From a virus (lineage: Duplodnaviria; Caudoviricetes): a DNA stretch of 64,000 bases. Positions 9,790 through 42,731 of this stretch are shown here, one piece after another (within the stretch, counting starts at the first letter, position 1; each line of letters opens with the position of its first letter). The stretch lies in the IMG/VR virus record IMGVR_UViG_3300049012_000071, positions 1 to 64,000 of that record; one strand, 5' to 3'. The notes under the pieces were generated by a model that made no database searches, was not told the DNA's origin, and saw only the letters and a program-made list of their open reading frames with translations. Position numbers and translations under genes: made by a program.

Positions 9790-10124
9790 CCTTCGGTCCT
9801 CCTCGGCTCCATCCAACACCCCGCCGCCGCCAGCTCGATCACCTCGGCCTCCGCCGGGTACCACCGCGCCAGCTTCATCCGCGCCACGCCCAGGTCGAGC
9901 GGCGTCACCGGCTCCAGCGCCACCACGCGGATGCGCAGCCCGTCGGCGCCAGCGCAGCAGGGGACGCCCAGGGCGAAGAAGCCGATGCGGGCGGCGGCTT
10001 CCAGAGCCTCGGCGCCAGGCTCCGGAGGCGGCCCGATGGCTCGGGTCTTGGCGTGCGCTGCCTCGATGTCGGCCCACGTGAGGCTCGCCGGCGTGCCGTA
10101 GTTGCTGAAGGCGCCGGCGCTCAT
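9786..10124 (-). CDS. Hypothetical protein
   Basis: Coupled ORF. Confidence 0.55.
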   Translation of the reverse strand: MSAGAFSNYGTPASLTWADIEAAHAKTRAIGPPPEPGAEALEAAARIGFFALGVPCCAGADGLRIRVVALEPVTPLDLGVARMKLARWYPAEAEVIELAAAGCWMEPRRTEG

Positions 10125-10558
10125 TCGTCGTCGTCCATGCGGTCTGACCGAAGCGCCTCGAGATGCTCGCGCCACGCAGCATTCGATCGCTCAGCCGCCG
10201 CCAGCTTCTCCCGTAGGGCGTCGCGCTCCCGCTCCGCCTGCTCCAGCGCGTCGAGCAACGCGAGCACGGCGGACGGCTGCGTCTCGACGACATAGCGGGA
10301 GATCGGCTCGACGTGAAAGTACGGGTTCGGCTGGAGAATCACTGCGCGGCTCAGAACTTCACCCGCATCGCCGCTGGCGTCACAGGTGACGTCATGGAAT
10401 CCGAGCCAGATCCCAGCAGCGCCCTTCTCGCCCGTTTGCCACTCCCCCGGCGCCTCGCGCGCAGCAGCCTCCGCCGTCTCCCGCATCCGGCGCCGCCGCT
10501 CGGCGTCCATGGGAGAAGGATCCTTCTGGTCGGCGGTAGCTTTCTTCTGGTCGGTCAT
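10121..10558 (-). CDS. Ead/Ea22-like protein
   Basis: APGEW...QPSAVLALLDALE followed by coiled coil. Confidence 0.6.
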   Translation of the reverse strand: MTDQKKATADQKDPSPMDAERRRRMRETAEAAAREAPGEWQTGEKGAAGIWLGFHDVTCDASGDAGEVLSRAVILQPNPYFHVEPISRYVVETQPSAVLALLDALEQAERERDALREKLAAAERSNAAWREHLEALRSDRMDDDE

Positions 10559-10983
10559 CGCTTGCCCATCGGCGGTGGCCACGGGTTCACCCGCTCGACC
10601 CCGGCGGCCTTGACCCACATCGGGTGGTGAACGGGGCACAGGTGCCGGTCCATGCCGATCTCGCGAGCGTGGTCGTCGCACAGCGGCAGATCGCACGTCT
10701 TCCCGCGGCCCATCGGCCAGTCGCAGAGGTTGTCCCCGACGGCGCCGCATGTCGGCTCGGAGCAGTGCTCGCCGAGGTCACCGCAGATAAAGACCTCGCC
10801 TCCGTCGATGAAGTTGGACTGCTCGCGCACCACCTCCTCTGGCCAAAGGTCCGGATGCTCAGGGTGGCCCTGGCCCTTGCCGGGGCGGCGAGTCTTCCAC
10901 CCGTGCCTGTAGCCCGCCTGCTCCTTGGCCTCCCACATCGTCATGGGCCCCATCTTCTCTCGATAGCAAGGCATAAGACGCAT
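10555..10983 (-). CDS. Cys/His-rich Zn-finger phage protein
   Basis: FICG...LCDWPMGRGKTCDLPLCDDHA...LCPVH. Confidence 0.65.
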   Translation of the reverse strand: MRLMPCYREKMGPMTMWEAKEQAGYRHGWKTRRPGKGQGHPEHPDLWPEEVVREQSNFIDGGEVFICGDLGEHCSEPTCGAVGDNLCDWPMGRGKTCDLPLCDDHAREIGMDRHLCPVHHPMWVKAAGVERVNPWPPPMGKR

Positions 10984-10995
10984 CCCTCCTTGGGC

Positions 10996-11346
10996 TCACC
11001 AGCCAGACGCGACGATGTCCGGCGTGGCGTCGGCTTCCTCGATGAGCGCCGCGTCGTGGATTGCGAAGTAGCGCGCGATCTCTGCGTCCCGTGCGATGTC
11101 CATCATGATCTCCTCCAGCGAGCGGCTCTTGCTCTTTCGCCGCGCCCGCTCCTCCGCGTCGACATGCCCGGTGAGCTCGCGACCGATTCGCTCCATCTCA
11201 TGCTGGATGAACGTCCACTCGACCCGTCGAAACGGCGCGATCTTGTCCATCCACTTGTAGCAAGCGCCGAACGCCGCGCTCCACAGCGCGTCCGGGTCCT
11301 CATGCGGCAGGAACTTCGACGCCTCGGCGAACGGGTCCTTGTTCAA
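10996..11346 (-). CDS. Hypothetical protein
   Basis: Coupled TTG start. Confidence 0.55.
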   Translation of the reverse strand: MNKDPFAEASKFLPHEDPDALWSAAFGACYKWMDKIAPFRRVEWTFIQHEMERIGRELTGHVDAEERARRKSKSRSLEEIMMDIARDAEIARYFAIHDAALIEEADATPDIVASGW

Positions 11347-11756
11347 CGGCTACCCGCGGTCTGCTCTGCTGAGTCACCGAACAGCATCGCGTCGTCTGCG
11401 TGATTGAGCATCAGCACGGCGGAGTCGTCCGCCGGGTCGTAGCTCGCCGCGATCTCCGCCTGGCCCGCCTCGCGCCGCCCGTTCGGCACCACCTCAACCC
11501 CGCGCTCATGCACAAGATCCGCGAGTCGGTTGGCCTCTGTCACAAGGTCCGCCGGGGCTACGATGCAGACCACGTGCGGGTAGTCGAGAACTTCCTCCGC
11601 GTCGAAGCCGGCCTCGATCTTCGATCGGCCGTCTCCGCTGTCCGTCGTATCGAAACCGTGCTCTCGGAGCCACCAGACCGTGCGGCTGATACCGTGATCC
11701 AGCTCCGCCAACGTTCTACCCATCATGGCTTTTCCATCCGTGTTTGATTCAGACAT
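11343..11756 (-). CDS. Phage hypothetical protein
   Basis: LDHGISRTVWWLREHGFDTTDSGDG motif; GGAGAGG RBS. Confidence 0.65.
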   Translation of the reverse strand: MSESNTDGKAMMGRTLAELDHGISRTVWWLREHGFDTTDSGDGRSKIEAGFDAEEVLDYPHVVCIVAPADLVTEANRLADLVHERGVEVVPNGRREAGQAEIAASYDPADDSAVLMLNHADDAMLFGDSAEQTAGSR

Positions 11757-12631
11757 GGCACCTCTCCTCCATCAACCGCACCGAGCGCCGGCAGGATCTC
11801 CGCGCGCAGAATGCCGCGGTGACATCTGCGGTCGTCCATGCAGAAGCAACACAACACCGTTGCGCCGCGCGCCAGCAGCCGCCGCCACGCCTCCGGGTGC
11901 GGCCGCGCACCACGCTCCCAGGCTTCCTCGGCCATCGCTCGCCCCTCGGGCGGCAGCCGAGTCCAGGCTGGCGTCCCGCGCGCGATGCCGTAACTGACCC
12001 GCATCTCGGCCAGGAAGTGCGCCCGGAACCACGTGAACCACTGCGCCTCGACCCGCTCCGCTTCGGCCGTGAGCGCCGCCGCATGCTGCTCCCGCGCCTC
12101 CACGTCGGCCCGGGTATCGCCTAGGTCGAGCTGGCGCTCACGGAGCTCCGCCGCTGCCTCCCGGAGCTTCTCAGCCTGCCCGCGCGCCGCGAGCGCCCGG
12201 TCGAGCAGCGCCTCCGACGGCGCGAACGGCAGCCCGGCCGGGTCGCAGCCGTCCCCGCGGCGGGTGATCTGAAAGCGGCCCGGCCGGGAGTAGGTCGCCC
12301 GCGCCGAGAAGACGAGCAGCCCTTCGGCCCCGATGTCGGGCGCGTGCTCAACCCAGTCGACGCCCGATGCGTCCGCCGCAGCGAGCGCCGTGTCGATGGC
12401 GCCGTCCGGCTCGGCCCAGCGGAATGCCTCCACCCGGTCCGCCAGAGCCAGCTTGAGCGGGTGCGTCTCGACGGCAAGCCCCCGCTGCCGCGCCGCGATG
12501 CTCGCCACGGCCGCGACGTCACCCTCCGGCGGCAGGACCAGCGTGGTGTCCGCCGGGAGCTCGTGGACGCGGCTCCACACCTGGGCCAGGGCGCGGTGGG
12601 CACGGGCGCCGATGATGGCGACGCGGGTCAC
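11723..12631 (-). CDS. SLOG-like N-terminal domain fused to a DUF488-like C-terminal domain
   Basis: N-terminal RVAIIGAR...ARQRGLAVETHP; C-terminal VLCCFC...CHRGIL. Confidence 0.55.
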   Translation of the reverse strand: MTRVAIIGARAHRALAQVWSRVHELPADTTLVLPPEGDVAAVASIAARQRGLAVETHPLKLALADRVEAFRWAEPDGAIDTALAAADASGVDWVEHAPDIGAEGLLVFSARATYSRPGRFQITRRGDGCDPAGLPFAPSEALLDRALAARGQAEKLREAAAELRERQLDLGDTRADVEAREQHAAALTAEAERVEAQWFTWFRAHFLAEMRVSYGIARGTPAWTRLPPEGRAMAEEAWERGARPHPEAWRRLLARGATVLCCFCMDDRRCHRGILRAEILPALGAVDGGEVPCLNQTRMEKP

Positions 12632-13665
12632 GATGCTGCCACCGCCCGGAGAGCCACGTCGCGCGCGGCAGTCAGCGTCTCGAACCGCGCCCGGTCCCCG
12701 CCCTGGTCGGGGTGAGCCCGCTCGGCGGCGATCCGCTGCCGGTAGGCCCGCTGCACCTCGTCGGGCGTCGCGTCAGCGTCGAGGCCCAGCTCCGCGAGCG
12801 CCGCGTTGCGCTCTGCGCTCTGCTGCTGCGACCGCGCTATGGCGCGTCCGAGCGCTTCGCCGAACTCCCGCGCCTCGCGCTTGTAGCGCTCGTCCAGCTC
12901 GACCGCGGCGGCGTGCTCGCGCCAGAACTGATCGAGCTCGGCCTGCGGCGGCGGGGCGAGGTAAAGGCGCACCCCGTCCGGGCGCGGCCCGACGTGGCTC
13001 CAGCCCTGCTCGGCCAGGTCGCACAGGCACGGGGCGCAGGTTTCGACGCGCCACTCGGCCCGCGGGCGCCGGACGTCGAGATCGTACCTGCTCCCGAAGT
13101 CGCGGTAGCCCTCAGGCCGGCGGATCTGCACCTTCTCGACGCGGTAGCGGCCATCTCCCGGGCTCGCGAGATAGGCGTGCTTCGGCGTGCGCTTGAGCAT
13201 GGCCGAGAAGCGTCGGCGGACCTCGAGCCAGCGCGCGCGCTCCTCCTCGGTCGGCTCATGGTCGAAGACGTCGATCTGGAGGTCACAGCCGTAGAAGAAG
13301 CCGCAGATAGGTGGCTCCTTCCGGTAGTCGAATCGGCCTGACCCCGTGGTCCGGGCACGCCCGCCGCTCGCGACGCTCGAGAGGTCGTCGGCGTGAACCG
13401 ACATGTCGCCCCCGGGCGTCTCGATCAGCACGAAGTTCTCGTCGCCCTCGGAGAGCACGCGGCGCCGGACCGCGAGCGGCGGCCCGTCGATGCGCCCAGG
13501 GACGCGATGCAGGGTCCAGACGTGCCGCGGCGTCCAGCGAGAGCAGAGGTTGGCCTTCGCCGGCCCCGGGCGAGCGATCGCGTTCGCGCGCGGCGTCGGA
13601 CTCGGCGCCCAGGGCATCCCCGTCTGCGCGCTCTGCGGCGCGCCGCGGCTGCGCTTCCGGGTCAT
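12628..13665 (-). CDS. Protein with a C-terminal DnaJ J-domain
   Basis: LGLDADATPDEVQRAYRQRIAAERAHPDQGGDRARFETLTAARD with an intact HPD. Confidence 0.8.
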   Translation of the reverse strand: MTRKRSRGAPQSAQTGMPWAPSPTPRANAIARPGPAKANLCSRWTPRHVWTLHRVPGRIDGPPLAVRRRVLSEGDENFVLIETPGGDMSVHADDLSSVASGGRARTTGSGRFDYRKEPPICGFFYGCDLQIDVFDHEPTEEERARWLEVRRRFSAMLKRTPKHAYLASPGDGRYRVEKVQIRRPEGYRDFGSRYDLDVRRPRAEWRVETCAPCLCDLAEQGWSHVGPRPDGVRLYLAPPPQAELDQFWREHAAAVELDERYKREAREFGEALGRAIARSQQQSAERNAALAELGLDADATPDEVQRAYRQRIAAERAHPDQGGDRARFETLTAARDVALRAVAAS

Positions 13666-15032
13666 GCCAGCTCCCACACAGCGCGGTTCGCCTCTGCGCT
13701 GCGAGGCGCGGGCGCCACCGCGTCCTCCACCGGTTTCCTGCTCGGCGGCTTCAGCGGCCGGATGGCGGCGACGCAGGAAGCCTTGGCCTCGGCAGGCGTG
13801 AGCGGCCGCCGGGGCTGCGGAGGGGACGGCGAAGGCGGCGGTGCAGCCGGTGCCGTCCGTGGCTGGATGGCCTTTGCGCGCGGCGGATCAGGGGCAGACG
13901 CGGCGGGTGCGACGACGGAGACGGGGGCAGCATCGACGGCAGGCGCCTCGGGCGGCGGCAGAGTCGGAGGTGGAGGCGCTGGCGGTGGCAGTGGAGGTGG
14001 AGTTTGTCGTCGTGCCGGGATCTCCGGCGGCTCCGCACCCCACAGCACGGCGTCGTCCTCGGCGACCAGCCGGCGAACCGCGCGCTCGAGCTTCTCCAAC
14101 GCCTTCACCTTGATCTGCCGGATGCGCTCCCGCGTGCGGTCGAAGCTGGCGCCGACCTCCTCGAGCGTCTCCGGGTCGTCGGCGAGCACCATGCGCCGGA
14201 CGACCTCCTGCTCCTGGGCGGTGAGCCACGTCATGGCCCGGCCGATCAGCTCCCGCCGGCGCGCCTGCGCGTCCTCGTCGACCACGGCGTCCTCCGGGCC
14301 GGGCTCGGCGTCGGCGGTCATCTCGCCGAGCGTGGAGCCGTCGTCCTCGTGTCCGAGAACGGGAGCGTCGAGGCGGCGCGGCTCCAGGAGCAGGCGTGCC
14401 GCGGCCGCCTTGTCCGACATGCCCTCGCCAGCGCGTCGCTCCTTGCGGATCGTCTGGTGCATGTGCGTCGGCACCCGGATGTCGGACCCCTGGTCGTCGA
14501 GCGCGCACTGGAGACGCTGCCTCATCCAGATGATCGCGTACGTGGAGAGCTTCGCGCCCTCCTCCGCGCGCCACTTCGAGGCCGCGTGGATGAATCCCAT
14601 CCGGGCCCACTGGATGAGGTCGTCGTCGTCGAGGCCCCGGTTCCGGTACTTCATGGCCAGCTTGAGGATCAGGCGCTCATGCGCCTCGAGCAGGATGTCC
14701 CCCGCGCGGCGGTCGCCGGCCTGGTAGCGGCGAATGAGCGCCACCTCCTCGTCGCCAGCGATGTCCGTGTGGGTGGCGCGTGGCTTCGGCGACTCTTCAT
14801 GGGTCGCCGGGCGCGGATGCGTCGGCTTCGGCGCGACGCGATCGGACTGGGGCGGCGCCGGGCGCACGACGGCGCAGGCTTTGACCGCGCGCGACGTGGC
14901 CTCAGCCACGGGCACGACAGCCGCTGCCCTACGGGGCTCTCGGCGGGCGGGCACGTCGAGCAGCAAGACCGGCGCGGGGGCCACCGTCCCCGAGGCGCGG
15001 CGCTTCTCGGCCCAGGAGGCGGCGAGATTCAT
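13662..15032 (-). CDS. RNA polymerase sigma70-family factor (RpoH/RpoD-like) with Pro-rich extensions
   Basis: Region 2 DDLIQWARMGF...KLSTYAIIWMR; region 4 TLEEVGASFDRTRERIRQI. Confidence 0.85.
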   Translation of the reverse strand: MNLAASWAEKRRASGTVAPAPVLLLDVPARREPRRAAAVVPVAEATSRAVKACAVVRPAPPQSDRVAPKPTHPRPATHEESPKPRATHTDIAGDEEVALIRRYQAGDRRAGDILLEAHERLILKLAMKYRNRGLDDDDLIQWARMGFIHAASKWRAEEGAKLSTYAIIWMRQRLQCALDDQGSDIRVPTHMHQTIRKERRAGEGMSDKAAAARLLLEPRRLDAPVLGHEDDGSTLGEMTADAEPGPEDAVVDEDAQARRRELIGRAMTWLTAQEQEVVRRMVLADDPETLEEVGASFDRTRERIRQIKVKALEKLERAVRRLVAEDDAVLWGAEPPEIPARRQTPPPLPPPAPPPPTLPPPEAPAVDAAPVSVVAPAASAPDPPRAKAIQPRTAPAAPPPSPSPPQPRRPLTPAEAKASCVAAIRPLKPPSRKPVEDAVAPAPRSAEANRAVWELA

Positions 15033-15781
15033 GCGCCAACCTGAGGTTGGGTCCGGAGCGCCTTCGTCATCGACGCTTCCTCAGCCGACATGTTGAAGGT
15101 ACGCATGCGGTAAAGGATCGTGGCCACGGCCACACCGGACACCTCGGAGATCTCCTTCATCGTCAAGCTGACGCCATAATATTGGTGCCTCGGAGTCAGA
15201 TCCGCCAAGCGTTTCTTCGTCGCCGCAATCTTTCGGCACCCGCAGGACGTCGTAAATCCGGCCTTCAGGTTGTTGGCCAAGGCAGCAAACGTATTCCCGC
15301 AGCGGTTGCACAGACACTCCCAACGTCGCTTCTTTCGGCCAGCTTCCTTCTCCGCTTGCAGATTCATCGGTCGCAGCACGAGAACGTCTCCGTTTGCAAA
15401 CGTGCGTCCGGCCAGATCTTCGCCGCGCAAGATGGCCCGCTCAGACGCCTTTCTCCGGAACACGCACCCGCATGACACCACGCGACCGGTCTTGAGGTCC
15501 CCGCCAACGATGACCTTTGGCGGACTGCCACAGGCGCACTGGCACAGGTACTGCCTCTTGCGATGGGCGCTGAGGTCCACCTCCCGCAGTACGGCCATCT
15601 GCCCGAATGTCTTGCCTACGATGTCGGCTGATGCTCGAACCGGCTGCGCGATAGCCTTCTCTGGTGCCATCCCGTGTGCCAACCTCGCGCACATCGTGTT
15701 GATTGATGTGCCAGCGATCAGAGCCATCTCCCTCGCGGTGAGGAGCTCGCCGAACACCTCGTACGTGGCGCCGCGGCTCAA
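15029..15781 (-). CDS. DNA-binding protein built from homing-endonuclease-associated repeats
   Basis: Two CxC...G..xSCGC modules between two HTH-like repeats; no nuclease motif seen; AT-richer. Confidence 0.6.
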   Translation of the reverse strand: MSRGATYEVFGELLTAREMALIAGTSINTMCARLAHGMAPEKAIAQPVRASADIVGKTFGQMAVLREVDLSAHRKRQYLCQCACGSPPKVIVGGDLKTGRVVSCGCVFRRKASERAILRGEDLAGRTFANGDVLVLRPMNLQAEKEAGRKKRRWECLCNRCGNTFAALANNLKAGFTTSCGCRKIAATKKRLADLTPRHQYYGVSLTMKEISEVSGVAVATILYRMRTFNMSAEEASMTKALRTQPQVGA

Positions 15782-17193
15782 GCGGCAGCCTCTTCACCAA
15801 ACTTCGCGGCATAAACCTTCTCGGCCCAGCCGGGCGCGAAGCCCTTTGCAGAAGCAAAACGCTGGATGCGCAACAGCTCTGCCGCGCGCTCTTCCGCTGT
15901 GAACGCCGGCTTGTACTCCTCGAGCTCGGCATCTTGCTCGTTCGGCACCGACCCAATACGCGGGAACACCGCCGAGCACTCCGGGCACACCGCGCACCCA
16001 GCCGGCACCACGGCGCTGCACTCCGGGCACACCGCGCACCCAGCCGGCACCACGGCGCTGCACTCCGGGCACGCTTTCGCCGGCGCCTGCCGAGGCCCAC
16101 CGCCGCGCCGCATCTCCAGCGACCACTCCCGGTCCGCATGCGGCAGCCCGTGCCCCTGCACGACGACGTTGCCGGCGTGGTCCAGAATCATCGGCCGCAC
16201 GCCATCCCACGGCCGCATCGCGCGCGACGCCTGCTGGATCATGAGCGCGAGGCTCTTCGTCGGCCGGGCCATGACGACGCACTTCACGGCGGGCACGTTG
16301 ACGCCCTCGCTCAGCACGCCGCAGCTCGACACCACCTGGACCGTGCCCGCTGCGAGCGCCTCCAGGATCCGCTTCCGCTCCGCGCGCGGCGTCTCCCCGT
16401 CAAGGTGTTCCGCCGCGATGCCGGCCGCACGGAACCTGGCGACGATCGCCCGGCTGTGCTGCAGCCCGACCGGGAAAACAATGGTCCGGCGGCCCTCGGC
16501 GAGCCGCTGCCACTCGGAGACGATCGAGCCGACCAGCGTGCGCCGGTTCGTCGCGCGCTCCAGCTCCCCGAGCTCGTAGTCCCCGCCTGTGGTCTTCACG
16601 CCCTTCAGCTCGGGGAGGAGCTCCGGCGGCACCGTGAAGATACGCGGCGCCGGCGCGAGGTGCCCGTCGGCGATCAGCTCGCTCGGCTGGGCGACGACGA
16701 TCATGGTGTCGTACTCCCGGCCGAGCCCGCGCCCGTCGAGGCGACACGGCGTCGCGGTCAGGCCGACATGGAGCGCGTCGGGGTAGAGCCCGCGGAGCTT
16801 CCGGCGTCCGTCGCTCGCGTCGCGGTGGGCCTCGTCGGAGATCACGAGGTCCGCCGGCGGCTTCGTCCGGTGGTGGAGCGTGTCGACGCTGGCGACCTGG
16901 ATCGGTGCCGCTGGGTTGTGCCGCGGGTCGCCGGCCATCACCACACCGAGCAGTTCCCGCGGAACGCCGCACTCGATGAGGTGCTCGTACATGCCATCGA
17001 CGAGCTCGCGGCGATGAGCCCAGGCGAGCCCGCGGAGTCCCTGCTCGACGGCCATGGTCCGGAGCAGCGTGGCGCCGATCAGGGTCTTGCCGCCGCCGCC
17101 CGGGACCACGAGCAGGATGCGCCCGTTGATATGCTCGACGGCGTACGCCAGCACCTGCTGAACGGCGCGCTCTTGATACGGTCGAGGCTGCAT
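15778..17193 (-). CDS. SF2 DEAH-box helicase with C-terminal Zn ribbon
   Basis: RPYQ, PGGGGKT, DEAH, LTATPCR, ARPTKS, DHAGN, and CPEC repeats. Confidence 0.92.
   Translation of the reverse strand: MQPRPYQERAVQQVLAYAVEHINGRILLVVPGGGGKTLIGATLLRTMAVEQGLRGLAWAHRRELVDGMYEHLIECGVPRELLGVVMAGDPRHNPAAPIQVASVDTLHHRTKPPADLVISDEAHRDASDGRRKLRGLYPDALHVGLTATPCRLDGRGLGREYDTMIVVAQPSELIADGHLAPAPRIFTVPPELLPELKGVKTTGGDYELGELERATNRRTLVGSIVSEWQRLAEGRRTIVFPVGLQHSRAIVARFRAAGIAAEHLDGETPRAERKRILEALAAGTVQVVSSCGVLSEGVNVPAVKCVVMARPTKSLALMIQQASRAMRPWDGVRPMILDHAGNVVVQGHGLPHADREWSLEMRRGGGPRQAPAKACPECSAVVPAGCAVCPECSAVVPAGCAVCPECSAVFPRIGSVPNEQDAELEEYKPAFTAEERAAELLRIQRFASAKGFAPGWAEKVYAAKFGEEAAA
15976..16072. repeat. 42-bp tandem repeat (2.3 copies) encoding CPECSAVVPAGCAV
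   Basis: Exact duplication at 15976-16017 and 16018-16059, plus a partial copy. Confidence 0.9.
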
Positions 17194-17262
17194 TGTCAGG
17201 CTCCGATTCTGACACCGTCTCTCGCGGACGCAATCGCTACGTCGCAGATCCGCTGTCTCGCA

Positions 17263-18174
17263 TCACCCGTGCTCCGCCACAGCCTTCCTCGCCGGCCGCA
17301 GCGGGCGCACTGCCGCGGTCTGCTCCGGCGGCTTCCGCGGGGCCACCTTCGCGCGCGGACGTGGAGCCGACGCATGCAGCGGCTCTCGCCTCCGCATCGG
17401 GCCCTTCGGCAGGTCGCCGCCCCAGAGCACGGCGTCGTCCTCTGCCACGACAAGCCGCAGTGCTCTGCCCAGCTTCCGCATCACCTCCGCCTCCACCTGC
17501 CGCGCGCGCTCACGGCAGACGCCCCAGCTTTCGCCGATGGCGACCAGCGTCTCCGGCTCCTCCGCGAGCAGCCGGCGGCAGGCCAACTCGCGCTCCCGCT
17601 CGCTCATGCAGGTCATCGCGCGGTTGAGCAGGCGGCGCATCCGGGTCAGCGCGTCGCCGTCGACCGCGGACTCCTCCGGCAATGGTTCCTCGGCTGGGAC
17701 GATGTCCTCGAGCGTCATGTCGTCGCCGCCCATCGGCGCGCTGAGGCTCAGCGTATTCCGGAGGAGCAGCCGCAGCTGAAGCCGCTCCGGGATCTCATGC
17801 CCGGCCTTCCGGTGCTCCTGGATCTGGTTGTCGACGGTGCGGCCGACGGCGATCGTTGACCCTTCGGCAGCAACGGCCTTCTGGGCGTACGCCCACGCCC
17901 AGTCCTTCGCGTAGGTGTTGAGCCGGTTGCCCAGTGAGGGGTCGAACCGGCGGATCGCCTCCAGGTACCCTTCGCGCCCGGCCTGCATCACATCGTCCTT
18001 GTCGAGGCCTCGGCCGAACCATTGCCGCACCGCCTCGTGGATGAACGGGTCGTGCGCCTGAACCAGCAGGCCGCCAGCAGCGGAGTCTCCAGCCTGGCAT
18101 CTGCGGATGAGGTCCGCCTCGATCTCGCGCGTCAGATGACGGTAGGTGAACCGGCTGGTAGTGAGTAACTGCAT
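17263..18174 (-). CDS. RNA polymerase sigma70-family factor (RpoH-like)
   Basis: HLTREIEADL, DDVMQAGREGYLEAIRRFDP..GNRLNTYA, TLVAIGESWGVCRERARQVE. Confidence 0.88.
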   Translation of the reverse strand: MQLLTTSRFTYRHLTREIEADLIRRCQAGDSAAGGLLVQAHDPFIHEAVRQWFGRGLDKDDVMQAGREGYLEAIRRFDPSLGNRLNTYAKDWAWAYAQKAVAAEGSTIAVGRTVDNQIQEHRKAGHEIPERLQLRLLLRNTLSLSAPMGGDDMTLEDIVPAEEPLPEESAVDGDALTRMRRLLNRAMTCMSERERELACRRLLAEEPETLVAIGESWGVCRERARQVEAEVMRKLGRALRLVVAEDDAVLWGGDLPKGPMRRREPLHASAPRPRAKVAPRKPPEQTAAVRPLRPARKAVAEHG

Positions 18175-18214
18175 TGGTGTCTATTGTGATGCTGTTTCGG
18201 GGAGAAGCAATCGG

Positions 18215-18526
18215 TCAGACGCGTCGCCTCGCCGCGACCTCGACGGCGTCGGCCGCGAACTGCCGCACGAGGACACAGGCCTCGTACGCTCTCGCTCTCT
18301 GGTGACGCTTCGCTGCGAGTTCTCTGTCCACGCACGCCCATAGCGCCTCGGCGGGCCTGCGCAGATGAGCCGCCGCTGACACGGCAGGGCGCCTGGCGAC
18401 ACGCTCGATGTCATCGAGGATGCTGCGGGCCTCCCACCACATGTCCTTCCGCGTGAAACCCGAACGCTGGCAGGCGTCCACCAGGGCGTTGGCCCACGAC
18501 ATGGCGAGCCGAAGGTCCTCGCTCAC
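18215..18526 (-). CDS. Hypothetical protein
   Basis: Coupled GTG start with GGAGG RBS. Confidence 0.55.
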   Translation of the reverse strand: MSEDLRLAMSWANALVDACQRSGFTRKDMWWEARSILDDIERVARRPAVSAAAHLRRPAEALWACVDRELAAKRHQRARAYEACVLVRQFAADAVEVAARRRV

Positions 18527-18867
18527 CCCGCCTCCAAGCTGCTCGCCGCCACCGGCCCGAACTCCGCCGCCAGCCTCGCGCCGAGGTCGAACCACGGCAT
18601 GGGCAACCCGTCGCGCTCGGCGGCTGAGCGATCCCCGTCCCAGCCGTGTTCGATGGCGTCGTACTCGGGTGCGGCGATCTCCACGTCGATGTCGCCGACC
18701 TCGTCGCGCGTGAGGTCGTACGCGCCCCACGCGCAGCAGCCGACTGCGACTCCGGTCCGGCGCACCACGGCCGCCGCCCGCACCAGCACGAGCCCCTGTT
18801 CCCGCGCCTCCGCGCACGCCGCCCGCAGCGCCGTCTCCACGGCGGAGATCCTGTCTTGCTCGGTCAT
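18523..18867 (-). CDS. Hypothetical protein
   Basis: Coupled ORF. Confidence 0.55.
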   Translation of the reverse strand: MTEQDRISAVETALRAACAEAREQGLVLVRAAAVVRRTGVAVGCCAWGAYDLTRDEVGDIDVEIAAPEYDAIEHGWDGDRSAAERDGLPMPWFDLGARLAAEFGPVAASSLEAG

Positions 18868-19202
18868 GACGCCCTCCAGTGTCGCTCGATCATCTCCACC
18901 ATCATCGGCCCGAACCTGCGATTTGCGCTGTGAACCCGCGGCTTCATCCGCGGCCACGCGCCGTGGACCACCATCCACGCCACCAGTTCAAGCCCCGTTG
19001 GCACGTGCGGGCAGTGGTCCGGACCGAGGTCACTCGCGCAGCCCGCACACTGGCCGAGGTCGTGGTCCAGCGAGGCCTCGTCCACGCCGCGCAGGAGAAG
19101 CGCCTTCGCCTCGTCGAGCGTCCGACAGAGCGTCCACGGACCTCCGCCATCATCCGGCGGGTTGCGCATGTCGTCGAGGTAGAGTCGAACCGGCTCGCTC
19201 AT
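18864..19202 (-). CDS. Cyclic-phosphate-processing receiver-domain protein
   Basis: LYLDDxR...SLDHDLG...TG...HSAN signature. Confidence 0.8.
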   Translation of the reverse strand: MSEPVRLYLDDMRNPPDDGGGPWTLCRTLDEAKALLLRGVDEASLDHDLGQCAGCASDLGPDHCPHVPTGLELVAWMVVHGAWPRMKPRVHSANRRFGPMMVEMIERHWRAS

Positions 19203-19468
19203 GACATGTCCTTGATCGCCATCGCGTCGAGCAGGTCGTCCAGATCCCCCAGCGTGCGGGCGTAGTTCTGGTCCGGAGAAAGCCCCCAGAGCCCATCCAC
19301 CTCGCTGTGCACGAGCGCGTCGCCATCAGCGGCCTGCCGCGCCCGCTCCAGCTCGGCGCAGTCGTCGTCGCAGACCACCCGGCCGGCGACGTCCTGCCAG
19401 GAGAAGGGGCGCTTCCGGTGGGGGAAGGCCGGGGTGGTGCCGCAGAAACAGCAGCGCTGGTCGGTCAC
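19199..19468 (-). CDS. Small Zn-finger protein
   Basis: CCFC...CDDDC; coupled. Confidence 0.5.
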   Translation of the reverse strand: MTDQRCCFCGTTPAFPHRKRPFSWQDVAGRVVCDDDCAELERARQAADGDALVHSEVDGLWGLSPDQNYARTLGDLDDLLDAMAIKDMS

Positions 19469-20328
19469 CTCGGCTCCTCTCCGCCGGTCCACCCCTGCGC
19501 GCGCAGCACCGCGGAGACGTCGGCCGGAGCCCACCCGTCCGGCTTCCGCGCTTTGCCGCGCTCATCCTTCCCGCCGCCCGCCTTGTTGACGTTGGCCACG
19601 TGCACGGCGGCAATCACGGGCGCCTCGTCGATCCCCAGCTGCACCGCCGTCCCCGAGACGACGTAGTGGAGGTCGGCGAGCTCGTGGACCAGCGCAGGGA
19701 GGTCGACGGGTCCCACGATCGCCTCGTCGATGAAGTAGCGCACCCGGTCGGCTCGCTCGTCCCAGTCGAGGATCGGAAACATCGCCGCCATCACCTCGAA
19801 GAACTCCTCCGCGATGAGCCGAGCCCGCAGCCGCACCTCATCGTCGCTGGGCACCGTCGGCGCGTCGCGCACCGGGAAGTCCAGCGCGCGGTGGAACTCG
19901 GCAACCTGCTCCTGGAAGCTGCGGCGGGCACGCAGCCGCTCGACCTCAGCCGCATGCTCCGCCGCGCGCCTCTCGGCCTCCTCGGCTCGCGCTTGCATGA
20001 GGCGGAGATCCCCAGCGAGTGCGCCGTTCTTGGCGGCCCAGAAGCCTGTCGCCTTCTCGACCTCGCGCTCGAAGTGCGCGTTCCGCTCCTGGATCTCGCC
20101 GGAATGCTTGTCGCACCACGCCCGGTGGTCATCGCGTGCCTTGTTGAGCTCACCGACGCGCATCACGAGGAGGCCGCTTCGCTCTTCGAGCAACCGCTGC
20201 GTGTCTTCGAGTTCTTCACGCAGCCGTTCAACCTCAGCAACAGCGCGCTCCAGCGTGGCATGCGCACCAGAGCCGGCAGGTTGCGCGGCGAGGAGGGAGC
20301 GGAGGGCGGGGAGGAGGTCGGCCGTCAC
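19465..20328 (-). CDS. Coiled coil fused to a MazG-like (PRA-PH family) NTP pyrophosphohydrolase
   Basis: VAEFH...LRARLIAEEFFE...ELADLHYVVSG...VHVANVNK...GKARKPDGW. Confidence 0.8.
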   Translation of the reverse strand: MTADLLPALRSLLAAQPAGSGAHATLERAVAEVERLREELEDTQRLLEERSGLLVMRVGELNKARDDHRAWCDKHSGEIQERNAHFEREVEKATGFWAAKNGALAGDLRLMQARAEEAERRAAEHAAEVERLRARRSFQEQVAEFHRALDFPVRDAPTVPSDDEVRLRARLIAEEFFEVMAAMFPILDWDERADRVRYFIDEAIVGPVDLPALVHELADLHYVVSGTAVQLGIDEAPVIAAVHVANVNKAGGGKDERGKARKPDGWAPADVSAVLRAQGWTGGEEPR

Positions 20329-21236
20329 GGAGCCACCGTCCGCGCCGGCATCTCCGCCCACACCTTCCCGTCGAGTAGCGGCAGGCTCACCTTGTGGCCG
20401 CGCGCGTCCAGCTTCTGCTTGAAGAACATCTTCACGCCCTGGGCCTTCGCCTGGTCGCGGATGCTGCGCACCCAGTCGTCCCACATCGGGCGCGCGCCGG
20501 GCCCGCTCTCGGCGCCCGCGATGACCTGGTGGATGCCGGCCAGGTCGAGCTCGCCGAGATCCTCGAGCAGCGGTTCCAGCGAGAGGAAGCGGACGGCGGC
20601 GGGTACGCTGCGGAGATGGTCGATGCGAGCCTTCCGCTTCTGGTCCTCCACCGATGCGCCGAGCCAGACGTTCGACAGCGGCCAGATGTCCGGCATCCCG
20701 AGGTAGTCAACGTTGGCGCCGTGGTTCGCTGCCTCCACGCCGCACAGCAGGGCGCTGGGACGACCGCTCAGGCGATCGGACTCACTGCCCACCCACCCGA
20801 AGAAGCAAGGTAGCCGCTCCGCCCGCTTCGTCAGCACCTGAAAAGTATGCTGCGGGCACGCCGCCATCACGCCAAACAGCGCCGCGATCTCCTCGTTCGT
20901 CAGCGCCTCGTGAAACGGGTCGAACATCGACAGGAACCACGTCGTCGGCTTCTTCCGGTGGAGGGGCTCGGCGAGCTTCTCCGGGACGAGCGCGACCTTG
21001 CCGGTCCAGCGCGGCCCGTGCTCGGTCATCTCAGCGAACCCGTGAAACGGCTGCCCGGGGCCCGAGAACCGCGCCGCGATGCCCTCGGCGTAGCAGCCGC
21101 CGCGCTGGCCGGCCGTGCCGCTGTAGGAGCCTCCGCCGCCGCACCCTGGCGAGATGCGGGAACATCCACGGATCGGGTTCCATGTCATGCCGCGCTCGCC
21201 GTGGGCGCCTTGGACCCACTCGATCTTCGTCGTCAT
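20325..21236 (-). CDS. Phage Gp37/Gp68 (DUF5131) protein
   Basis: TKIEW, TWNPIRGC, PQHTFQVLTKR, NVWLGASVE, RFLSLEPLL, GAESG, FFKQ. Confidence 0.92.
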   Translation of the reverse strand: MTTKIEWVQGAHGERGMTWNPIRGCSRISPGCGGGGSYSGTAGQRGGCYAEGIAARFSGPGQPFHGFAEMTEHGPRWTGKVALVPEKLAEPLHRKKPTTWFLSMFDPFHEALTNEEIAALFGVMAACPQHTFQVLTKRAERLPCFFGWVGSESDRLSGRPSALLCGVEAANHGANVDYLGMPDIWPLSNVWLGASVEDQKRKARIDHLRSVPAAVRFLSLEPLLEDLGELDLAGIHQVIAGAESGPGARPMWDDWVRSIRDQAKAQGVKMFFKQKLDARGHKVSLPLLDGKVWAEMPARTVAP

Positions 21237-21853
21237 CGCTCCTCCTCCCGCAGCACCACCGCGCGCCGGTGCGCCTCACGCCACCACCGCACCGGGTGCT
21301 TCTTCAGCCACCCGTCGAGCAGCGCCTGGAGCTCGGCCGTCGCACCGTCCGGGATCCGCGCGCCACTTGCCTCCTGCCGCTCCAGCGCGTCCTCGATGAC
21401 CTGCACCGCGTCGAGCGTGAGCGCCTCTTCCTCGCACTCCCAGACGTACTCCGGCGGCTCCTCGTCCACGTCCTCGTATCGGCCTCGCAACTCGTCGATG
21501 CTGTCGAACAGCTCCTCGAGCCGCTCGCTCCAGACGAACTCGCCGGTCCAGTCCTTGGCGGATACCTTCTCTGCGCGCTCGAACGCCGCGCGCTCCTTCG
21601 CAGCAGCCGCCTCGGCCTGGCGCTTGTAGAGGCAGGGCTCGCACGTCTCCCAGTGCTGGCGCCTCTCCGCGCCGCACCCGCAGAACCACGGACCGCAGTG
21701 CTCCATCGCAGCCGCGCGCGCCGCAGCGATGCGCTCGTCCTCGGTGCCGATGAACCCCTTCGGCGACGACGCCACGACATGGCACTTGCCGCACGCGAAC
21801 GCCGCGGTCTTGCCCGTCGCCTGGTTCAGCAAAACGATCGGCTCCGCTTCCAT
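21233..21853 (-). CDS. Cys-rich hypothetical protein
   Basis: CGKC, CC/CGC and CEPC motifs; coupled. Confidence 0.6.
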   Translation of the reverse strand: MEAEPIVLLNQATGKTAAFACGKCHVVASSPKGFIGTEDERIAAARAAAMEHCGPWFCGCGAERRQHWETCEPCLYKRQAEAAAAKERAAFERAEKVSAKDWTGEFVWSERLEELFDSIDELRGRYEDVDEEPPEYVWECEEEALTLDAVQVIEDALERQEASGARIPDGATAELQALLDGWLKKHPVRWWREAHRRAVVLREEER

Positions 21854-21863
21854 CGCTCCTCCG

Positions 21864-22181
21864 TCAGCCATCCCCGCTCTCCTCTCCCGTCCGCGGCAGC
21901 TTCCCGGTCCACAACGCCAGCAGCGCCTCGTTCGCCCGGCGCACCATCTCCTCGCGCTCCGACGTCTCGTTCTCGCGGTAGTAGGACACCCGCATGTCCC
22001 GCGGCCAGAACTTCCCGCCGGCGCCCAGTTTGCCCATGAAGCGGTACTCGTCGGTCGGGCGCTCGCGGGTAAACTCGTGAACGAAGTGAGCGCGGCTGGG
22101 GTAGGACCATTCGCGGCCCTCAGCAGCGCCGCACTCGCGCACGAGGATGTCGTAGATGGCGTTCGCCTCGTCCTTGGTCAT
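21864..22181 (-). CDS. Conserved phage hypothetical protein
   Basis: IYDILVRECGA...EYRFMGKLGAGGKF...YYRENET. Confidence 0.7.
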   Translation of the reverse strand: MTKDEANAIYDILVRECGAAEGREWSYPSRAHFVHEFTRERPTDEYRFMGKLGAGGKFWPRDMRVSYYRENETSEREEMVRRANEALLALWTGKLPRTGEESGDG

Positions 22182-22714
22182 CGCCCGTTCTCCGTCTGCG
22201 CTCTCACGATCACCTCCGCCATTTCCTGCGCCAGCAGGATCAACTCCGGCCCGGTGACCGGCACGCCGCTGTAGATGCCGGCCTTGAGCGCGGCTTCGAG
22301 GATTGCCTGCCCGAGTGCGTTTCGCTCGTGGGTGAGTCGGGCCTCGCTCTCGCGGAGCCTCCGCACCTCGGCCGTTAGCCGCACCAGCGCATCCGCCCGC
22401 TCCTCCAGCCCGTTCACGGCGCGCTCGATGAGCGCCATGTCGGGCTCCTGGATGGCGATGTCGATCACGCGGTCGTACGGGTGCTGCTGGCCGTGCGCGA
22501 CCGGGTAGCTTCTGCGCCCGGCCTCTGATCGGAGCTCCCGCTGGCTGTTTGCCGTCCACCACTTCCACGGGCGCGCGGTACCGCGGATGGCAGCGACCTT
22601 GTCCTCGCGGGCAGCGGTCTCGATGGCGGCGAGGTCGTCCTCCGCGAGCGCCGCCCGCTGCTCCGGGGAGGCCGCCGCGCGGAAGGGGGCGAGGGGGTCG
22701 GTGGGAGAGGTCAT
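22178..22714 (-). CDS. Ead/Ea22-like hypothetical protein
   Basis: TARPWKW...PDMALIERAVN followed by coiled coil. Confidence 0.55.
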   Translation of the reverse strand: MTSPTDPLAPFRAAASPEQRAALAEDDLAAIETAAREDKVAAIRGTARPWKWWTANSQRELRSEAGRRSYPVAHGQQHPYDRVIDIAIQEPDMALIERAVNGLEERADALVRLTAEVRRLRESEARLTHERNALGQAILEAALKAGIYSGVPVTGPELILLAQEMAEVIVRAQTENGR

Positions 22715-23085
22715 CGCGACGCCCCGACGAGTTTCTCTGTCCCCTCTCGCAGCGAGAACACCACCTCCATCCGGTACGCTTTGCCGCCGCGAATCCGCAG
22801 ACCAGAATGACTGTCGCCGCCCTCCCACGTGAGAAAGAAGTCGGCCTCGCCCTCCAGAACCTTAGCCACCTCGGCCATGTGCTCGCGGAAGAAGTTGCCG
22901 GAGCCCTCGCTGGAGATGCCGAGGTCCACCTCGGCGTAGTCGTCGTCTCCGAACTTCAGGTCGTCGACGAACCAGATCTCCGGCGACTCACCGCGGAACT
23001 TGCGCCGCAACTTCGCGGCGTTCTTCTTCGATATCCGAAGCTTCTCTCCGCCGATCTGCTCCCACGAGTCGATGTTGTAGCTCAC
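22711..23085 (-). CDS. Hypothetical protein
   Basis: AGGAG RBS; LTWEGGDS motif. Confidence 0.6.
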   Translation of the reverse strand: MSYNIDSWEQIGGEKLRISKKNAAKLRRKFRGESPEIWFVDDLKFGDDDYAEVDLGISSEGSGNFFREHMAEVAKVLEGEADFFLTWEGGDSHSGLRIRGGKAYRMEVVFSLREGTEKLVGASR

Positions 23086-23208
23086 GTCGTCCGCTCCTAT
23101 CTGCTCACATCCACAACCACGCCACCACACTCACACCCCGCACCGCCGCATCCGCCGCGATCTCCGCCAGCCACGCGTCGCTCCGCCTCGGCCCGATCCC
23201 GCGCGCGT

Positions 23209-23484
23209 TCAGTCATCGTCATTGGGGCGGCGGGAGTCCGGGGCGTCCTCGTGTCCGGGATCCGTCATCCAGGCAAACGGACGCTCTCCTCCGTTGTATC
23301 CAGCCGCAAGAAGTGCCGTCTCCAGGTCGTCCGAGAACTCGGCGTCGACCACGCGCCGCCTCTGCGCGTACTGCCACAGCAGATCCTGTGCCGTCGGGTC
23401 ATTCACGCTCAGCGGCACCTTCCCGCGAGGCGTCGTCGGGTACTTGTCGCTCTGAAACTCGCCGTCGATCAGATGTGCTCCCAT
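23209..23484 (-). CDS. Conserved phage hypothetical protein
   Basis: AAGGAG RBS; GEFQSDKYP...DPTAQDLLWQYA...EFSDDL. Confidence 0.7.
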   Translation of the reverse strand: MGAHLIDGEFQSDKYPTTPRGKVPLSVNDPTAQDLLWQYAQRRRVVDAEFSDDLETALLAAGYNGGERPFAWMTDPGHEDAPDSRRPNDDD

Positions 23485-23575
23485 CGTCGTCTCCTTTCAA
23501 GATGCGCGTCGTTTCGCTCGTCCAGCGCCGCCCGTGGCGGGTACAGGGTCCACCACGGGCGCACTCGCAGACAGC

Positions 23576-23842
23576 CTAGCCGCCGCTCGCGACCATCCAG
23601 TCCTCCGCAAGCATGTCCGCCTGCGAAGCGAGCCAGCCGGGCTGATGCTTGCCCTGCGCCGTGAACATCACGATCACGGGCTCGTAATGCCGCTCCGTCC
23701 CCTTGTAGATGCCCGCCTTCACCGGCATGCGGTAGCCGTCCTCGAGGTAGACGTGCATGCCCTTCCCGTTCCAGCCGTCTCGGCAGACGCATGCGCCCGC
23801 CTTCATCCGCCGGATCGCCTCACCAAAATCGAACCTATCCAT
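23576..23842 (-). CDS. tad2: DUF2829 / Tad2-like (Thoeris anti-defence sponge family) protein
   Basis: FGEAIRRMKAG..VCRDGWNGKGM...GWLASQADMLAEDW. Confidence 0.8.
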   Translation of the reverse strand: MDRFDFGEAIRRMKAGACVCRDGWNGKGMHVYLEDGYRMPVKAGIYKGTERHYEPVIVMFTAQGKHQPGWLASQADMLAEDWMVASGG

Positions 23843-23979
23843 GCCGATTCTCCTGTCTCTGTTAGCGAAACCGCTTTGACTGAACTTGCTTCATGACAGC
23901 GCCCGCATCGCCGCGAACTGCGCCTCCGCGTCGGTGAGGTGCGCAGGGGAGAGGCGGGGGTAGAGGGAGGCGAGGATGG

Positions 23980-24696
23980 TCACGTGGCGATGCTGACCGA
24001 CTCGTGAAGCGGCATCACGATCGCCACGGGCGCGCCATCGACCACCGCAACGACGGGATGCGGAGACTGTGCCAGCTGTTCCCACGTGGCAGACGGGTAC
24101 AGGTCCGCGATCAAGTCAACGTACCCAGATGCGATGCATCTTGGCCCGAACGCTACGACGTGTCCGCCAAGCGTCCGGGAATACGGCCCACGGCGGCCAG
24201 GGCTCACCGGCGCGCGCATCTCAGCCAGGCGCTCCTCAAGTGAGCGACCCCGACCGTCGGGGCACTCGCTGGTGGCGGGCTCCTTGGATGAGATGGCGGA
24301 GCACCCGTCGGCGATCCACATGGCGCCGCCCACGTTGACCAGAAACAGCGACCTGCCGGCGGAGTACCGATGCCGAGAGCAAGCCGACCGCATCCACTCC
24401 GGCGTCCCCGCTGGCGCGTCAACGATCTGCCCGTCGCGAGCCAGTGAGTCAGTCCAGTCGCCGATCAGGTGGAACTTCCCATCGGCTACGATGGCCGATG
24501 GAGCCGCGTTCTTCACGCGTGCGCCTTCGTACTCCCAGTCGTCATCGTCGTCCAGAAGCCCGGCACGCTCGGCCTCGTACGCGTCCACGTGCCGCTCCAG
24601 GTCGGAGCGGTCCTTGGCGGCAACGTAGACGTGCGTCCGCTTGACGAACTCTACCTTGTAGACCGAATAGCCTTCCGGCAGTTCTACATCGCTCAT
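23980..24696 (-). CDS. Hypothetical protein with a beta-clamp-like C-terminal motif
   Basis: Ends ...PVVAVVDGAPVAIVMP. Confidence 0.55.
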   Translation of the reverse strand: MSDVELPEGYSVYKVEFVKRTHVYVAAKDRSDLERHVDAYEAERAGLLDDDDDWEYEGARVKNAAPSAIVADGKFHLIGDWTDSLARDGQIVDAPAGTPEWMRSACSRHRYSAGRSLFLVNVGGAMWIADGCSAISSKEPATSECPDGRGRSLEERLAEMRAPVSPGRRGPYSRTLGGHVVAFGPRCIASGYVDLIADLYPSATWEQLAQSPHPVVAVVDGAPVAIVMPLHESVSIAT

Positions 24697-42389: not shown

Positions 42390-42729
42390 CGTCACGGTGG
42401 ACCAGATCGTCGAGCGTGTGGTCGCGGTGCTGCGTCCTGAGCTGGACGCCATCCGCCAGCTCGTCGAGCGCTCTCCCGTTCCGGGTAACGACGCCCAGAC
42501 GGGCCAGCTCCTCACGCGCGAGGAGCTCGCCGCAGCGCTCCGCCTCAGCGAGGCGACGCTGAAGCGTTGGGACCAGGACGGCTGCCCGCGCGTGCTCATC
42601 GGCAACCGGCTCCCGCGATACCGGCTCGCCGACGTTCTGGCATGGCGCAGCACGGCGCCGTCGAAGCCGGCGCGGGTCTCGGCGGTGAAGCCCGCGCCCG
42701 TGCGGCTGCTCTCGCGGGGGAGGAGGTAG
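42382..42729 (+). CDS. xis: Excisionase (AlpA/HTH_17-like)
   Basis: LLTREELAAALRLSEATLKRW..GCP..PRY..DVLAW, immediately upstream of int. Confidence 0.75.
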   Translation: MRDVTVDQIVERVVAVLRPELDAIRQLVERSPVPGNDAQTGQLLTREELAAALRLSEATLKRWDQDGCPRVLIGNRLPRYRLADVLAWRSTAPSKPARVSAVKPAPVRLLSRGRR

Positions 42730-42731
42730 CC

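Follow-up and report, generated by a model that had tools for sequence, protein, structure and literature searches.

The phage described here encodes two intact sigma-70-family factors, SigA and SigB, which by phylogeny are old paralogues of one clade and which differ in the residues predicted to recognise promoters. Both genes lie on the minus strand of a stretch of 64,000 nucleotides (the window), the first 64 kb of one 101,652-bp IMG/VR virus record (IMGVR_UViG_3300049012_000071; linear, CheckV completeness 81%), with a G+C content of 70%. The record is a temperate, myovirus-like tailed phage whose nearest gene relatives are prophages in Sorangium genomes. The largest genomes of any cultured bacteria are those of Sorangium, an important source of natural products; to our knowledge, nothing has been described on transcription control in Sorangium phages. 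We think it probable that SigA and SigB are two ordinary phage sigma factors for two promoter classes, old paralogues encoded in a mosaic slot, and that the genes for a helicase, a cysteine-repeat (Cys-repeat) protein and a J-domain protein are movable neighbours. A sequence-only reading of this DNA had already noticed twin sigma factors that differ in regions 2.4 and 4.2, and our analysis bears this out: they are two intact sigma-70-family paralogues with unlike promoter-recognition residues in a temperate phage.

Two old paralogues with unlike recognition residues

Both proteins scored above the Pfam cut-offs for sigma region 2 (Sigma70_r2, PF04542; 47.4 bits for SigA and 39.8 bits for SigB vs a cut-off of 24, upheld by a six-frame search) and for region 4 (Sigma70_r4, PF04545; 39.0 and 25.5 bits vs 24.1). 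About 85 residues separate the two regions, and alignments to the RpoS and RpoD models run from one end to the other, residues 14-249 of SigB, for example, covering model positions 28-284 of 285. Regions 2.2 and 2.3 contain five residues that do not vary within the clade (D61, Q64, T87, Y88 and A89) and a sixth, W92, that is kept in at least 90% of the sequences. Over 283 residues SigA and SigB share 39% identity (E=1e-52). SigA has an N-terminus of 85 amino acids (aa), rich in Pro and Ala, and a C-terminal tail of 115 aa. Besides these two, the 101.6-kb genome contains no sigma gene. At positions 48628-48726 of the window, on the plus strand, a weak Sigma70_r4-like match (17.5 bits, below cut-off) lies in an open frame of 525 codons, in a 1-kb gap of the crude gene calls. 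A relationship to MzaA, a sigma factor of a defence system, was considered and dismissed, the match being partial (124 bits vs a cut-off of 800).

SigA is 76-79% identical to the Sorangium prophage sigmas P0105-P0107. In these proteins and in the 670-aa sigma P0108, likewise an A-type prophage sigma of Sorangium, the sigma core is preceded by a conserved domain of about 200 aa (LTPTEHALLERLH...IRNLYDAYDDQVGL) for which Pfam gave no match; this N-terminal domain is absent from SigA, and no remnant of it was found elsewhere in this genome.

To place the two factors, we built a maximum-likelihood tree of 36 sigmas, including four from the genome of Sorangium So ce388. The phage sigmas formed one clade (support 100/99), well apart from the RpoD group; this clade was sister to a myxobacterial RpoH-like clade (itself 100/99; joint node 93/85) and was not nested inside it. 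An A-type subclade (100/99) united SigA with prophage sigmas from So ce233, So ce1024 and So ce134, and SigB paired with the metagenomic protein P0002 (100/100) among the more diverse remaining B-type sequences. Forcing SigA and SigB to be sisters cost 333 log-likelihood units and was rejected by the approximately unbiased (AU) test (p=6e-63), which rules out a recent tandem duplication of the two genes; the same test rejected a sister relationship of the two So ce1024 sigmas (p=0.01). The rejection of the sister pairing would therefore place the duplication far back within the phage lineage, with an A-type and a B-type line descending from it. The sequence-only reading had argued for a duplication within the phage lineage from the motif VAEDDAVLWG, common to both sigmas, and from a 17-bp DNA identity at the two copies. 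Both observations are real: the motif occurs at 14038-14066 and 17420-17448 only, with no match in 100 shuffles, and the two copies have an identical run of 17 nt in common. The single phage clade agrees with the proposed origin; the 17-nt identity results from a conserved peptide and biased codons and is not a sign of recent duplication.

Close relatives of SigA and SigB are few and come nearly all from Sorangium chromosomes and from soil metagenomes or viral contigs. Among deposited phages, a protein search returned only distant sigmas (at most 37% identity), none of them from a myxophage; a single-sequence scan of viral contigs returned zero relatives, a metagenome scan remote sigmas only, and the species-representative genomes just two matches, both in Sorangium.

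Both factors had been called RpoH-like. The name is fair in that the RpoH-like clade is their nearest cellular kin; by model score, box and clade placement, neither phage sigma qualifies as an RpoH. With the rpoH model (TIGR02392) SigA reached 102.4 bits and SigB 90.1 bits vs a cut-off of 323.1, although this model was the top NCBIfam match of SigB, below cut-off. The RpoH box (QRKLFFNLR-like) was not found in SigA or SigB, and the RpoH-like rows of the alignment also lacked a full box in the printed columns; at this position SigA has DIRVPTHMHQTIRK and SigB TIAVGRTVDNQIQE, and the RpoH-like rows have G(S/T)(S/T)xxQR/ER (LVKIGTTQSQRF, IVRLGSSKSERL). Among solved structures, SigA was closest to SigA/RpoD (1e-30, vs 3e-12 for RpoH) and SigB to RpoS.

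In the sigma-70 structure, regions 2.4, 3.0 and 4.2 read the -10, extended -10 and -35 elements. We compared these segments with the RpoD-like sigma of the host. From region 2.3 to 3.0, 18 of 36 residues are identical in SigA and 9 of 36 in SigB; in region 4.2 the counts are 20/30 and 14/30, respectively. SigA retains TYA..W.RQ in regions 2.3/2.4, IRVP.HM in region 3.0 and TRERIRQI in region 4.2. The equivalents in SigB are WAWAYA and IAVGRTVDN, so that regions 2.4 and 3.0 have diverged; its region 4.2 is partly canonical (CRERARQVE), with only the R-E-R-x-R-Q pattern left of the -35 helix. The difference in regions 2.4 and 4.2 that the earlier reading reported is thus visible in the alignment. 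Since the recognition segments differ, SigA and SigB should favour different promoters, as far as can be judged from the recognition residues.

One new feature of these proteins is a conserved C-terminal module, rich in Pro and Arg. An extension after region 4 is common to all clade members. It opens with DDAVLWG, which is the same in all of 13 sequences that average 38% identity per column, at the position where, by inspection, primary sigmas have their hydrophobic C-terminal end (..LRSFLD); then follow PxGPxRRR, a Pro-rich linker, PRAK and (TPAE..A..IA..)RPL[KR]PP.R[KR], in columns that are invariant or nearly so across the clade. In this genome the tail motifs are confined to SigA and SigB, and a database search with the tail alone retrieved clade sigmas only. 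The same module also ends two proteins of the viral contigs L050 and L051 that have sigma region 4 only, and it is therefore portable. In SigA the translation signals of the next gene, its ribosome-binding site and start, overlap with the terminal motif, and the conservation of the terminal W-E-R/L-A is due to this double role of the last residues. The RPL[KR]PP island lies 20-30 codons before the stop, where no overlap with the signals of the next gene explains its conservation. The module may dock onto a partner common to A-type, B-type and region-4-only proteins, for which host polymerase, DNA, DnaK or a phage protein come into consideration.

A mosaic sigma slot and its neighbours

The features of the phage are listed in the table. 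In the direction of transcription, the minus-strand order over 11723-18174 is SigB, a gap of 69 nt, helicase, Cys-repeat protein, SigA, J-domain protein (J-protein) and a protein with SLOG and DUF488 domains (SLOG-DUF488), and every junction downstream of the helicase start is a 4-nt start/stop overlap (TTGA for helicase/Cys-repeat, ATGA for Cys-repeat/SigA and for SigA/J, GTGA for J/SLOG-DUF488). The sequence-only reading had listed the first five of these genes correctly and had described the last four of them as translationally coupled, which is what the overlaps show, with the 69 nt setting SigB apart from the helicase. RecT, a RecE-like exonuclease and a polymerase-exonuclease subunit are encoded in the same long minus-strand block as the sigmas. 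The G+C fraction of third codon positions (GC3) is 0.86-0.90 across the slot genes, except for the Cys-repeat gene (0.75). Deposited phages had zero DNA similarity to the window, and Pfam and PHROG scans of most neighbouring genes were uninformative.

Table. Features of the phage record; positions are those of the window except where the record is named.
Feature	Position	Strand	Basis
SLOG-DUF488: YspA/SLOG + DUF488-N3a protein, 302 aa	11723..12631	-	protein atlas match 0.85, viral DUF488-N3a/YAcAr cluster
J-protein: J-domain protein, ~345 aa	12628..13665 (open reading frame to 13677)	-	HPD motif, J-domain fold, PF00226 below cut-off
SigA: 456-aa sigma-70-family factor, A-type	13662..15032	-	Pfam r2 1.6e-12, r4 5.8e-10; phrog_351 7e-48
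SigA C-terminal module: Pro-rich linker, PRAK, LTPAE..A..AAIRPLKPPSRKP, terminal WELA	13665..14012	-	alignments
Cys-repeat protein, 250 aa: two CxCxCG...SCGC units between two helix-turn-helix (HTH)-like ends	15029..15781	-	internal repeat E=5e-9
Helicase: superfamily 2 (SF2) DEAH helicase, 471 aa, RadD-like, C-terminal zinc-ribbon repeat	15778..17193	-	ResIII 2.8e-14, Helicase_C 6e-14
SigB: 303-aa sigma-70-family factor, B-type	17263..18174	-	Pfam r2 3.9e-10, r4 9e-6; phrog_351 2e-29
SigB C-terminal module, residues 243-303: DDAVLWG, PxGPxRRR, PRAK, VRPLRPxRK islands	17266..17448	-	
Tyrosine integrase	42567-44573		
terL	62179-63909		
Portal, maturation protease, major head, tail sheath and baseplate hub genes	74-91 kb of record		

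We then compared the synteny of ten related sigma loci with DNA (So ce1024, So ce233, So ce134, So ce388, L002, L035, L037, L050, L051 and L053). The So ce1024 prophage has a B-type sigma, a 214-aa gene, an A-type sigma and SLOG-DUF488, so that the order of upstream B and downstream A recurs there with different genes in between, and the paired sigma arrangement of the earlier reading is found a second time. In So ce233 and So ce134 an A-type sigma stands alone with SLOG-DUF488 directly after it, and in L002 one B-type sigma is likewise followed directly by SLOG-DUF488. So ce388 has a helicase (84% identical), then a single sigma; L037 has a B-type sigma 47% identical to SigB, then a helicase 96% identical, where the contig ends. 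L035 has a SigB orthologue with an in-frame stop. On L053, a distant viral contig, one remote sigma (26% identity) is the only slot gene. In both L050 and L051 the gene after a B-type sigma encodes a protein of 251-254 aa with sigma region 4.2 only.

These region-4-only proteins (L050:2623-3378 and L051:10822-11586) consist of a Cys/His-rich N-terminus (..PCPYVSCxHHLYLDV..), a lone region 4.2 HTH (TRERIRQIE) and the A-type Pro/Arg module, and they directly follow a B-type sigma with a degenerate 4.2 helix. In 3 of the 4 loci that could be resolved, a B-type sigma with degenerate 4.2 precedes a protein with a canonical 4.2 helix. This complementarity is suggestive and serves as a lead only, the loci being few and related to each other.

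Taken over the related loci, the slot holds a sigma or a region-4-only protein, or other genes in two loci, and the next conserved gene comes directly after it. SLOG-DUF488 is the commonest conserved gene immediately 3' of the slot in the relatives, with homologues 57-71% identical as the first gene past the sigma or region-4 gene in L002, L003, L005, L008 and L050; the protein has a weak PF22751 match, and its family is all-viral. In L037 a Macro-domain gene stands directly before the sigma, and in L035 a weak Macro match was seen there. The SLOG-DUF488 and Macro genes hint at nucleotide or ADP-ribose-related functions around the slot.

The synteny check does not support a sigma-helicase-J-protein system, whose linkage had been expected to be conserved: homologues of the J-protein and of the Cys-repeat protein were each found in 0 of the 10 loci, and the helicase is a variable neighbour. 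What is conserved is a mosaic sigma slot with SLOG-DUF488 after it in most relatives. The helicase, regarded before as an element flanked by the sigmas and linked to them, lies upstream of a single sigma in So ce388 and is absent in So ce1024, and the 96% identity of the L037 copy contrasts with the 47% identity of the sigma beside it. It has the DEAH motif in ..VISDEAHRD.., matches phrog_16 (1e-83) and exceeds the cut-offs of ResIII (53.8 bits vs 22.5) and Helicase_C (52.6 vs 23.5); with the RadD equivalog model (NF053632) it stays below the cut-off (81.9 bits vs 720). At 15976-16072 its gene contains a perfect 42-bp tandem repeat of 2.3 copies, encoding CPECSAVVPAGCAV zinc-ribbon units, and the So ce388 orthologue is 13 residues shorter.

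The Cys-repeat gene looks recently acquired because its GC3 deviates from that of its neighbours, and it is probably a selfish or accessory phage gene; its G+C at codon position 1 is 0.57, vs 0.74-0.77 in the neighbours. The match of its product to phrog_374 covers only profile positions 179-258 of 617, and no Pfam nuclease domain was found. We rejected an HNH homing endonuclease, no Pfam HNH match being obtained even at E up to 1. A Cys unit like those of this protein forms the N-terminus of P0108.

The likelier start of the J-protein is the ATG at 13665, within the ATGA overlap with the SigA stop and preceded by a GGGAG ribosome-binding site. The protein consists of two beta-rich N-terminal domains, a long helix and a C-terminal J-domain with the HPD motif. 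Its score with PF00226 is 19.4 bits (E=1.2e-3) vs a gathering cut-off of 27.8. The motif stands in the context AHPDQGGD, with H322 and D324 invariant in 16 homologues and the P present in 13 of the 16. The structural model has a predicted local distance difference test (pLDDT) score of 83, with local values above 90 in the J-domain. Residues 288-349 of the model match Tim14/16 (Z 7.9, root-mean-square deviation (rmsd) 2.1 A over 60 residues) and 8iuf_E6 (Z 7.8, rmsd 1.1 A over 56 residues), and further J-domain folds, including Rbj, DNAJC12, ERdj5 and HscB, were matched at Z 6-7.8. The domain is divergent, with helix I merged into the long helix. Judging from the model, this is a genuine but divergent J-domain protein.

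The N-terminal 225 residues form the two beta-rich domains (model pLDDT 88; predicted template modelling score, pTM, 0.82). Against solved structures they gave no Foldseek match at E<=1e-3 and a best VIA-align Z of 3.5, which does not prove a new fold. The beta-rich region at residues 25-250 (12928-13605 of the window) is conserved in about 27 representative proteins, the family comprising 27 representatives at E<=1e-10. Many homologues appear, on inspection of the alignment, to add an N-terminal ribbon-helix-helix-like DNA-binding segment. Four other genomic contexts of the J family were compared, three of them with DNA. An integrase was nearby in three of the four, one of which also had primase and DnaB genes close downstream. 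A called sigma gene was found in the flanks of 0/4, and tblastn found neither a sigma nor SLOG-DUF488 in the three contexts with DNA. In the present phage the J gene occupies the exact junction that in the relatives joins the A-type sigma to SLOG-DUF488, and it reuses the ribosome-binding site and ATGA embedded in the last SigA codons. From this position the J gene resembles an insertion rather than a co-evolved partner, and it appears to be specific to this phage. The J-protein probably brings host DnaK to another client of the mobile element, for example a replication or repressor complex.

Competing explanations

By analogy with known phage sigma factors, SigA and SigB would both bind the core of the host RNA polymerase and would direct it to two classes of phage promoters, one per sigma. 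SigA would read the -35 (TTGAC-type), extended -10 and -10 (TATAAT-like) elements through its housekeeping-type residues, and SigB, diverged in regions 2.4 and 3.0, would read a different -10 region. The mosaic slot would hold one sigma, a B-type and A-type pair, or a B-type sigma and a region-4-only protein; the helicase, Cys-repeat and J-domain genes would be independently movable and would lie in or beside the slot by chance, with the J-protein recruiting host DnaK to a client other than the sigmas. Several observations weigh against this preferred reading. No promoter class emerged from our scans of the phage: over-represented 10-mers were codon-derived or GC-rich noise; dyads of two 5-mers with a spacer in 60 upstream regions did not rise above the background of random segments; a sigma-70 consensus scan of 10-24 kb gave 0 sites; and the families of direct repeats across the window contained no promoter class. 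For this promoter work the gene calls were crude (GC3-based), and the 'intergenic' sets are therefore impure. Pfam did not detect region 3 (PF04539) in SigA or SigB. In the closest SigB orthologue on a contig (L035:3058-3930, the same in L036; 64-71% identity), two independent assemblies agree on an in-frame stop at the Trp codon of ..ESWGVCRER..; the frame is otherwise intact, tail motifs included, and the gene can therefore be dispensable. A phage with the host primary sigma at hand has no obvious need for a housekeeping-like SigA. Finally, the J gene is tightly coupled to SigA through ATGA, which could also be expected if the two were functionally linked.

RpoH sigma-32 is controlled by DnaK/DnaJ. 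This is the background to the proposal of the sequence-only reading that the J-protein is the sigmas' own DnaK adaptor, a dedicated protein that would deliver the phage sigmas to host DnaK or shield them and so make up a self-contained two-sigma cascade. It was a reasonable idea: the start of the J gene lies across the SigA stop, with its ribosome-binding site within SigA, the J-domain is real by motif and fold (HPD; Z 7.9), the sigma clade is sister to RpoH-like sigmas (93/85), the sigma tails carry Pro/Arg-rich motifs, and there is a precedent in Rki, a J-domain protein encoded by phage RB43 that works through DnaK to stabilise sigma-32 (PMC3486835). Only adjacency, however, ties the J-protein to the phage sigmas. 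No homologue accompanies the sigmas in any of the 10 related loci, the four other J-family loci are without a sigma (tblastn agreeing for the three with DNA), the position at the sigma/SLOG-DUF488 junction of the relatives is the signature of an insertion, and the sigmas are not RpoH members; we regard such an adaptor as quite unlikely. The earlier suggestion that the sigmas reprogram host stress or sporulation found no support either. In this reading the main targets of one or both sigmas would be host promoters, whether in a lysogen or at an early stage of infection, with effects on stress response, development or dormancy; the housekeeping-like -35/-10 residues of SigA could read host promoters, the phage is temperate and has an integrase, and the sporulation-like sigmas of Bacillus phages offer a precedent (PMC9429907). 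Both sigma genes are nevertheless inside a co-directional recombination/replication block with overlapping junctions, and in the interval 10000-24000 the consensus scan found neither a sigma-70-type promoter nor a minus-strand terminator that would mark a moron-like unit, which makes host reprogramming unlikely, though a little less so than the adaptor.

Another alternative draws on the lead from the region 4.2 helices: the downstream slot gene would supply a canonical region 4 and the C-terminal module to the upstream B-type sigma. Split or two-subunit sigma systems are the model for such paired action. The B-type sigmas of So ce1024, L050 and L051 have a degenerate 4.2 helix (TKQGAEEL, TKQRAQQV and TKQRTEQI, respectively) and the next protein has TRERIRQI, and where a sigma stands alone in its locus, the helix is mostly canonical or nearly so. 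These loci are few and related to each other, however; L002 has a degenerate B-type sigma directly before SLOG-DUF488 within the DNA seen, SigB of the present phage keeps R-E-R-x-R-Q, and SigA is complete and needs no partner. Paired action is, in our view, as improbable as the adaptor. A bolder form of the idea, in which the module, as a portable element for docking, amounts to an additional sigma region and the slot may encode a two-protein initiation device where a protein with a canonical region 4 aids a B-type sigma, strikes us as doubtful, if somewhat less remote than any of the other alternatives. We thus keep to the reading of two ordinary sigmas for two promoter classes.

Comparison with known systems

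Phages with several sigma factors are known, SPO1 and SP10 being examples (PMC9429907), and the Bacillus phage sigmas are presumed to redirect the host core polymerase to successive phage promoter classes (PMC9429907; PMC13401047). Like SPO1 (gp28, gp33/34) and SP10, the phage described here has several sigma-family genes in one genome; in SPO1 and SP10 they are found among the early or middle genes. SPO1 and SP10 are lytic phages of Bacillota with short, very divergent sigmas, whereas the present phage is temperate and myxobacterial, and its sigmas are full-length paralogues of one clade, related to groups 1-3 and equipped with the C-terminal Pro/Arg module. As to an SPO1-type cascade, the recognition residues of the two sigmas differ, and the scans recovered no promoter motif.

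Among cellular factors, SigA resembles the primary sigma RpoD/SigA in its recognition segments, with 50-67% of the residues there matching the Sorangium RpoD-like sigma; unlike RpoD, it has neither region 1.1 nor the non-conserved insert and has an extra C-terminal tail, it scores far below the RpoD model cut-offs, and it falls outside the RpoD clade (100/98). With RpoH, the nearest cellular sister, the phage sigmas differ in score (90-102 bits vs the cut-off of 323) and in the box, which was not found. The J-protein is like Rki in being phage-encoded and in having the HPD motif and a non-canonical client domain. It differs from Rki in that its J-domain is C-terminal, that its beta-rich N-terminal domains are unmatched among solved structures and that its family occurs in integrase-bearing elements, beside primase/DnaB or repressor-like genes. 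The analysis thus removes the self-contained sigma-J-protein-DnaK circuit, an attractive but unsupported idea, and flags an uncharacterised J-domain family of mobile elements, with a client domain that has no structural match. The L050 and L051 proteins are like the region-4-only 'sigma factor-like HTH' proteins of mobile elements and have in addition the SigA-type module; the window differs from these two contigs in having a complete A-type sigma in place of the region-4-only protein.

A phage with two sigmas is thus a known kind of arrangement, and what is new is the narrowly distributed clade from Sorangium phages. By our analysis this clade is small and specific to phages, comprises two old subtypes and has a conserved tail; the cultured lysogens So ce1024, So ce388, So ce233 and So ce134 carry members of it. 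The most noteworthy parts are the conserved tail and the region-4-only partners.

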